6,883 nt of DNA, taken from IMG/VR virus record IMGVR_UViG_2690316142_000010. The stretch is one strand, 5' to 3'. A program made the position numbers and the translations under genes. Source of the stretch: a virus. Taxonomy: Duplodnaviria; Heunggongvirae; Uroviricota; Caudoviricetes. Below, one piece after another: positions 4,236-4,466 of this stretch. The first letter of the stretch is position 1. Every line of letters starts with the position of its first letter. Below the pieces are notes generated by a model. It did not search any database, had not been told where the DNA came from, and saw only the letters and a list, made by a program, of their open reading frames with translations.

Positions 4236-4466
4236 CACCAGCACGACAAGATGCCGCATACAGTGCCCCAGTCAGTCCAGTTTTCAGACAACCAGTGCGT
4301 CACCTTTTTGAAGGCGCTTTAAAGCACGTTTTAATCCAGGTCGGCCTGTCCTTGTTCCGCTTAATTTATCTTCAAATATTTGTTCATATCCTGCACAAAC
4401 AAGAGCGTTTCGTTGCAGGTCTGTATTCTGGTCATTTGTTGATACCCTTACATAGCCAATCAGCAC
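4236..4466 (-). pseudogene. pin: Pin/Gin/Hin-family serine DNA invertase pseudogene: N-terminal catalytic region (about 62 codons from GTG 4466) then two in-frame TGA codons and fusion to a tfa relic
   Basis: VLIGYVRVSTNDQNTDLQRNALVCAGYEQIFEDKLSGTRTGRPGLKRALKRLQKGDALVV matches the Pin/Gin N-terminus (YVRVSTxxQ catalytic Ser motif). Where Pin continues WKLDRLGRS... this sequence reads *KLD*LGHCMRHLVVLVV. Track ORF 4284-4490 is the open part. Pin comparison is from memory. Confidence 0.8.

Follow-up and report, generated by a model that had tools for sequence, protein, structure and literature searches.

The window (the whole stretch of DNA analysed here, 6,883 nt) carries what its reading frame and domain content mark as a pseudogene derived from the serine DNA invertase family (Hin/Gin/Cin/Pin; PF00239 plus PF02796), alongside a tail-fibre switch which, in this lineage, has most probably been frozen and left without function. 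The explanation that best fits the whole of the evidence, and in which we have considerable confidence, is that the dead stub lies beside a grafted fibre cassette which is flipped in trans in relatives and is frozen here. The features on which the argument turns are as follows (positions are those of the window).

4140–4235, minus strand: 3′ relic of a tail-fibre-assembly (tfa) gene, the last ~30 codons, in frame with the pin stub, natural stop at 4142–4140
4236–4466, minus strand: stub of a Gin/Pin-type serine DNA invertase pseudogene, 77 codons, GTG start at 4466–4464
4382–4445, minus strand: putative Fis-dependent recombinational enhancer in the retained 5′ part of pin, placed by position and homology
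4521–4546, plus strand: 26-bp invertase crossover site TTATCTAAAACC-TC-GGTTTACGAGAA, pin-proximal, the sole one in the window
4547–5457, plus strand: silent promoter-distal variable 3′ part of a tail-fibre gene (Sv), Pfam gp37_C
5458–5991, plus strand: tail-fibre assembly gene of the silent module, 177 aa, intact (Caudo_TAP E=4.8e-34)
6020–6547, minus strand: tail-fibre assembly gene of the opposite module, 175 aa from ATG as in the gene calls of sister loci (Caudo_TAP E=9.8e-37)
6549–6838, minus strand: last ~96 codons of the opposite variable part (Sv′), severed from its 5′ part by an insertion sequence (IS)
6839–6883, plus strand: end of an IS3-family element; homology to IS-free loci stops at 6837

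The first part of the stub matches the Pfam Resolvase N-terminal domain (E=7.9e-20, profile positions 2–91 of 145) and contains GYVRVSTNDQ, the catalytic motif of serine invertases (YxRVST-DQ, with the nucleophilic serine), which it has in common with the classical P-pin of e14 (pinE), G-gin of Mu, C-cin of P1 and H-hin of Salmonella; where the two are comparable its frame is 64% identical to PinE. The GTG start is not a lesion, because the intact invertase homologue of prophage Phi1 starts with GTG as well. In the minus-strand translation from 4490 a frame of 113 letters runs through the invertase stub into the tfa relic, and two in-frame stops fall within the stub: TGA at 4286–4284, where intact genes have Trp (the W of WKLDRLGR), and TGA at 4274–4272, where intact genes have the first Arg of DRLGR. 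Instead of WKLDRLGR the frame reads stop-KLD-stop-LGH, the second Arg being replaced by His, and both arginines are gone. These conserved arginines belong to the resolvase/invertase active site. Further on, in the tfa-derived part, there is a TAG (4226–4224) where tfa has Trp. All three nonsense codons of the pin/tfa frame stand at Trp or Arg codons (TGG to TGA, CGG to TGA and TGG to TAG), their origins being judged against PinE and the window's other tfa copies. In the alignment the stub stays close to e14 PinE and to the Phi1 invertase as far as codon 77, after which LVVLV leads into the tfa 3′ end. When two intact invertases were compared with the window by tblastn only residues 1–99 aligned (4466–4179, E=2.6e-41 and 3.9e-36), the last ~20 of them on the tfa-derived part, and nowhere in the window was there a tblastn match to invertase sequence beyond residue ~99 or a Pfam match to HTH_7 (PF02796). 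Because the arginine motif, an uninterrupted ORF of ~180–200 aa with its oligomerisation helix and the C-terminal helix-turn-helix (HTH), all of which mark serine invertases, are missing from the stub, we class it as a pseudogene, and because the DRLGR arginines, the oligomerisation helix and the HTH domain are all lost it is a dead gene that is unable to invert the neighbouring segment. The initial annotation had described a Pin-type gene with its catalytic N-terminus kept, stops at the WKLDRLGR position, no HTH C-terminus and no capacity to invert the adjacent switch, and our results agree with it on each of these points (for the C-terminal half, from the absence of both HTH_7 and any tblastn match in the window). 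Its fusion to a tfa relic also stands, but not the ~85 codons that it allowed for the invertase part, which amounts to 77 codons.

The joint between pin and tfa falls between 4235 and 4234 (GCTGGTGG on one side and TGGAAGCC on the other) and shows 3–4 nt of microhomology. Beyond it the tfa relic matches Caudo_TAP (PF02413) over profile positions 104–130 of 131 (E=4.4e-12), that is, over the last 27 positions only of a domain of ~130, and is interrupted by the internal TAG. It aligns with the two other tfa 3′ ends in the window and is 99.5% identical to, and continuous with, the tfa–methyltransferase end of other lambdoid prophages. That the joint was made by an invertase acting at a secondary site was considered and rejected, because nothing there resembles the 26-bp site and the microhomology extends to 3–4 nt only.

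If the stops were sequencing or assembly errors the real gene would be a full-length invertase of ~190 aa, and it was resequencing to this effect that the initial annotation had named as its own refutation. The window is bounded by IS ends in the manner of a short-read contig, so that errors are conceivable in principle, but we found no evidence of any. NCTC86 and EC958 share all three stops and the pin/tfa junction with the window, and the stops were also checked in sister loci; the stub is 100% identical in one sister locus (L015) and differs by one base (4266) in another locus (L016); the 475 nt from 4086 to 4560 occur at full length with 99.2–99.4% identity in 531 of 5426 complete E. coli genomes, each an independent determination; and there is no downstream sequence from which invertase residues beyond ~99 could be supplied. 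As the stops and junction recur in NCTC86 and EC958, and the region in 531 genomes at 99.2–99.4%, the lesions are not errors and the refutation falls away; we give this explanation practically no credence. In NCTC86 and EC958 the relic occupies the right-hand end of a lambdoid prophage integrated in ompW, by the trp operon (trpA), and RefSeq (PGAP) lists it as two pseudogenes, a ‘recombinase family protein, missing C-terminus’ and a ‘tail fiber assembly protein, missing N-terminus’. In EC958 the prophage is Phi4, whose truncated invertase EC958_1582 was described as being without the HTH domain, inversion therefore being ascribed to an enzyme acting in trans (Forde et al., 2014, PLoS One, PMC4134206). 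The stub is already known, then, as a pseudogene in RefSeq and through a trans-dependence published in 2014, and has little weight as a discovery. The window as a whole is covered to at most 64% in complete E. coli genomes.

A different possibility is that the 68-codon N-terminal ORF (4490–4284) is expressed and yields a product with an independent function, such as interference with related invertases. It is open from a GTG at 4490, and gene callers sometimes report a 60-aa Resolvase-domain product, but no sigma-70-like promoter was found in 4000–4700, the ORF stops short of the DRLGR arginines and is without the helix that forms the dimer/tetramer interface, PGAP treats it as a pseudogene, and the stub is no better conserved than its flanks. 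We regard such a function as very improbable and keep to the stub as a dead gene.

The crossover site at 4521–4546, across which the initial annotation had proposed PCR with outward primers, is real: it has the same 26 bases as the Phi4_3prime site of EC958 (Table 3, PMC4134206) and fits the family consensus quoted in the same paper. Even when 6 mismatches are allowed it is the only such site in the window. The layout is like that of the classical switches in that the invertase gene lies directly beside the segment and points away from it, but the classical Fis-dependent systems encode their own active enzyme whereas the window has neither an enzyme nor a second site. Two crossover sites are present in relatives L001, L002, L016 and L022. 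EC958 Phi4 shares with the window the relic, the junction, the three stops, the proximal site and the ompW context (99.2% identity over 4086–4560), but it keeps both sites and an inverting segment of 3106 bp, and it is free of what distinguishes the window otherwise, namely an IS-cut segment, a nonsense codon in the silent fibre part, an IS1 at the flank, and a partial ISSso6 accompanied by a duplication of tfa/methyltransferase sequence.

The 3106-bp segment of Phi4 was assembled in both orientations from PacBio reads (PMC4134206), and the enzyme proposed to act on it in trans was presumably the Phi1 invertase (Forde et al., 2014, PMC4134206); EC958 Phi1 does contain an intact 199-aa invertase. 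An artificial inverted EC958 junction of 1000 nt, made up of the stub with the outer half-site, the central TC and the reverse complement of the distal segment end, was matched with at least 80% query coverage in 142 complete genomes, and all 40 of the 40 matches listed were 100% identical over the full 1000 nt, including those in JJ1886, JJ1887 and 81009. The construct in EC958 orientation reached at least 80% coverage in 284 complete genomes, so that the orientations stand at about 2:1. In the ST131 strain O25b:H4 the forward form is chromosomal and the inverted form lies in a 32.8-kb ‘extrachromosomal’ record, which is a spurious second assembly of the trp–ompW–prophage region and of the same kind as the alternative-allele contig of Forde et al. 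Because E. coli ST131 has the identical stub together with both sites, and both orientations occur there, an invertase acts in trans on the Phi4 segment. Clade structure, and not continued flipping, could account for part of the orientation counts, but the within-culture evidence (PMC4134206; O25b:H4) favours flipping that is still going on. RecA-mediated inversion between the 26-bp repeats was also considered and is unlikely in ST131: the two Phi4 sites share a perfect core of 12 bp only, and the construct with exchange within the core matches natural genomes at 100%, which together argue for site-specific over homologous recombination. A study of ST131 wound isolates also described reversible tail-fibre inversions in a BP-4795-like prophage, perhaps the counterpart of Phi4, which is not among its listed invertase carriers. 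With respect to the product, in the EC958 orientation (locus L002, 11913–13409) PGAP calls the constant fibre part a pseudogene without a C-terminus and the distal variable part is unannotated, while in the inverted orientation (L023, 8436–11261, the spurious O25b:H4 contig) the fibre is one intact ORF of 941 aa. From this comparison a complete fibre gene appears to result from just one of the Phi4 orientations.

A dead invertase beside a switch does not mean a dead switch, as the ST131 segment, present in complete genomes in both orientations at about 2:1, makes clear, and the cis elements, meaning the crossover sites and probably also the enhancer, can persist after the enzyme is lost. Such orphan switches are worth recording because fibre inversions driven in trans can affect the host: PinQ acts on e14 in trans and blocks phage T2, a host-level effect of fibre inversion in a cryptic prophage (PMC12529663). 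The initial annotation had left the switch either frozen or dependent on an invertase supplied in trans, and each of these alternatives holds in a different lineage, trans action in ST131 and, more likely, freezing in the window. What it had not seen is that the switch itself is broken too, that the stub is widespread and published, and that the enhancer position is still covered.

In the window the invertible segment still consists of two opposed modules, 4547–5991 on the plus strand and 6020–6838 on the minus strand, but the first has a nonsense codon and the second is truncated by an IS, and the two inverted sites that bound such a segment are reduced to one, no second crossover site being present in the window with up to 6 mismatches. 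The premature TAG in Sv (5303–5305) lies 50 codons before the natural end; NCTC86 has CAG (Gln) at this codon and L016 shares the TAG. In the IS-free loci L016 and L022 the Sv′ sequence runs on into a fibre gene of 918 aa and to another crossover site, and the IS cuts Sv′ ~670 bp short of the position of that site. The terminal sequence at 6839–6883 is probably that of IS600, and an exact-match scan of genome contigs with the fibre/IS junction gave no match; position 6883 of the window corresponds to L015 9426, and a transposase gene with HTH_Tnp_1 and rve domains starts at L015 9445. The window starts in an IS1 end and finishes in the IS3-family end, with transposase genes adjoining in the sister loci. 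The six sister loci (L015 and L017–L021) are 99.96–100% identical to the window over 1–2373 and 99.5% over 3113–6883 and share the insertion points of IS1 and the IS3-family element. From the IS1 and IS3-family element, together with the ISSso6 content of the window, the window's lineage and its six sisters are Shigella-like, probably Shigella sonnei. Beyond the IS lies unrelated phage lysis DNA which differs between the sister genomes, and in all six no partner site was found with up to 6 mismatches within ~7 kb beyond the IS (one site in ±8 kb).

Freezing is the likelier state because the IS3-family element separates the segment from the second site and from the constant fibre part. Since the enzyme is lost, no partner site adjoins and neither module has an intact fibre gene, we take the switch to be most likely frozen. 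Against this it can be argued that the switch still flips in the source genome, the IS being either a simple insertion or having merely moved the rest of the segment, so that the partner site survives elsewhere and a larger stretch is inverted by an invertase from a different prophage. The EC958 stub, whose segment flips, does have a matching proximal site and presumed enhancer, and this invertase family does act in trans on other prophages. However, the DNA beyond the IS is unrelated and contains no site (with up to 6 mismatches) within ~7 kb in the six sister genomes, and, with a defect in each of the fibre copies, flipping could not exchange one product for another. Continued flipping thus seems to us unlikely, and a frozen switch the better reading: the window copy has no intact fibre gene left to switch. 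What the IS-rich Shigella-type genomes illustrate is the final destruction of a switch through IS-mediated loss of the partner site.

When complete E. coli genomes in RefSeq were searched with the window's cassette of stub plus module, 6 reached 80% coverage, all of them without the stub part. The window's own inverted construct matched mostly prophages with an apparently fuller invertase gene, the matches starting at query base 20. The NCTC86 match begins at window 4515–4517, where the crossover site has its edge, and runs on the strand opposite to that of the stub; this change of strand at the site is what site-specific inversion between lineages would be expected to leave. The variable fibre parts of NCTC86 (L001, 8432–9743 against 11429–10138) are inverted repeats ~85% identical over 1.3 kb. 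The proximal module of the window matches the distal module of NCTC86 (~94% over the whole inverted match and 98.8% over the Sv–tfa module), with the homology breaking at the crossover site. From these relationships the modules appear to have been reshuffled between lineages by site-specific inversion together with homologous exchange.

The origin of the cassette can be read from blocks of identity in the EC958 locus (L002). Positions 7051–8152 (the tfa relic, methyltransferase and tfa 3′ end) are 99.5% identical to the lambdoid tfa–methyltransferase end, which in other lambdoid prophages is preceded by a full 194-aa tfa and a 1132-aa fibre gene; 8191–9715 (the 5′ part of pin, the site, the variable fibre part and tfa) are 96% identical to the P2-like Phi1; 11522–12034 (the distal site and ~490 bp of the constant fibre part) are 92% identical to it; and 11941–13429 are lambdoid stf. 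Because the blocks run lambdoid, Phi1-like and lambdoid again, we interpret the locus as a P2-type invertible cassette grafted into a lambdoid stf–tfa region. The Phi1 invertase of EC958 (WP_000905061.1) has 94% nucleotide identity to window 4265–4560 (the stub's first ~67 codons, the upstream sequence and the crossover site), and the Phi1 layout is alike in its opposed modules of fibre and assembly genes, with an invertible segment of 2773 bp. It differs in having a complete ORF of 199 aa with DRLGR and the C-terminal DNA-binding domain, and in belonging to a myovirus-type rather than a lambdoid prophage. On these identities Phi1 is a relative of the cassette's likely donor. The pinF gene of Shigella flexneri, which is related to P-pin of e14, is a precedent in Shigella for an inactivated gene of the Pin family; Tominaga et al. 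reportedly described the defective pinF in 1991 (J Bacteriol), with cross-complementation among hin, gin, cin and pin. Unlike pinF, the window stub lies in a lambdoid ompW prophage and is closest to a P2-type invertase.

In the sequence of events that we propose, a P2-type tail-fibre cassette would have been grafted into the stf–tfa–methyltransferase end of the lambdoid ompW prophage. The right-hand joint of the graft, or else a later deletion, would have come to lie within pin at codon 77 and within tfa at 30 codons from the gene's end; pin may have lost its 3′ part before the cassette was captured, or a later deletion may have shortened it. Since the formation of this joint three nonsense mutations have gathered in the pin/tfa relic. 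The stub can make no invertase but keeps its cis elements, the proximal crossover site and presumably the Fis enhancer, and in E. coli relatives with both sites the segment is flipped by the invertase of another prophage. In the IS-rich lineage of the window an IS3-family element has cut the segment off from the second site and the constant fibre part, which most likely leaves the switch as a frozen relic with no function, its remaining silent fibre copy having a nonsense codon.

Within the stub two 15-mers of the form G-N13-C lie at 4431–4445 and 4382–4396 (49 bp start to start, and 76–139 bp from the crossover site). They were picked as candidate Fis sites by homology to the sequence of the hin enhancer. 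Both are unchanged in the EC958 stub, whose segment inverts. Compared with the functional Phi1 gene, codons 1–36 of the stub differ at 1 of 110 nt and the next 92 nt at 12, a gradient that could equally be due to strong conservation of the N-terminal protein sequence before the gene died. The enhancer of hin is 65 bp long with a Fis site at each end and lies ~100 bp from one hix site (PMC3798978). By analogy with this family, which keeps the enhancer in the first ~170 nt of the invertase gene, we infer that a Fis enhancer is retained in the stub. It is possible, though we hold the view tentatively and think it rather doubtful, that the stub persists in hundreds of genomes as the enhancer of the switch (its first ~110–170 nt) and not by chance, the ompW prophage keeping a working switch without its own enzyme and relying on the invertase of a co-resident P2-like prophage, and that in the window's Shigella-like lineage this dependency has collapsed because the partner site was lost.

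Several other features of the window were noted. Rfam models for isrK (391–465, plus strand, 72 bits) and C4 antisense RNA (489–576, plus strand, 76 bits) match above their gathering scores, just upstream of and overlapping an ash-family ORF (355–630), which is followed by a Rha-family gene (612–1184); by this content the region is a P1/P7-type module of immunity RNA and antirepressor-like gene at the end of the prophage. A partial ISSso6 (IS110 family, 739 bp, 2374–3112) encodes the N-terminal ~200 codons of the transposase and is flanked by two copies of a 756-bp stretch of tfa relic and methyltransferase 5′ part (1618–2373 and 3113–3868). The first copy is 100% identical to the sister genomes and the second has 17 differences, all within 3151–3436; from 3090 the window matches a paralogous locus by an ipaH-like gene (L014) at 99.6%, and the sister genomes are without the arrangement in which ISSso6 separates the duplicates. 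Such a pattern suggests that paralogous prophage ends have recombined, or else that the assembly is chimeric, and not a simple duplication. No record was found for the two ORFs peculiar to the window, a methyltransferase::ISSso6 fusion and the truncated ISSso6 transposase. Inside the second tfa relic there is a match to Rfam IS009 (3134–3337, minus strand, 129 bits against a gathering score of 117), the other tfa 3′ copies in the window being below threshold. Finally, the window encodes an intact class I SAM-dependent methyltransferase of 222 aa (3417–4085, plus strand), whose gene many lambdoid prophages carry at their right end in convergent orientation to tfa (loci L005–L014) and which in one Shigella-like locus adjoins a gene for an IpaH-type (LRR/NEL) effector; it occurs in 13,959 blocks of the protein index and is a very widespread cargo gene.
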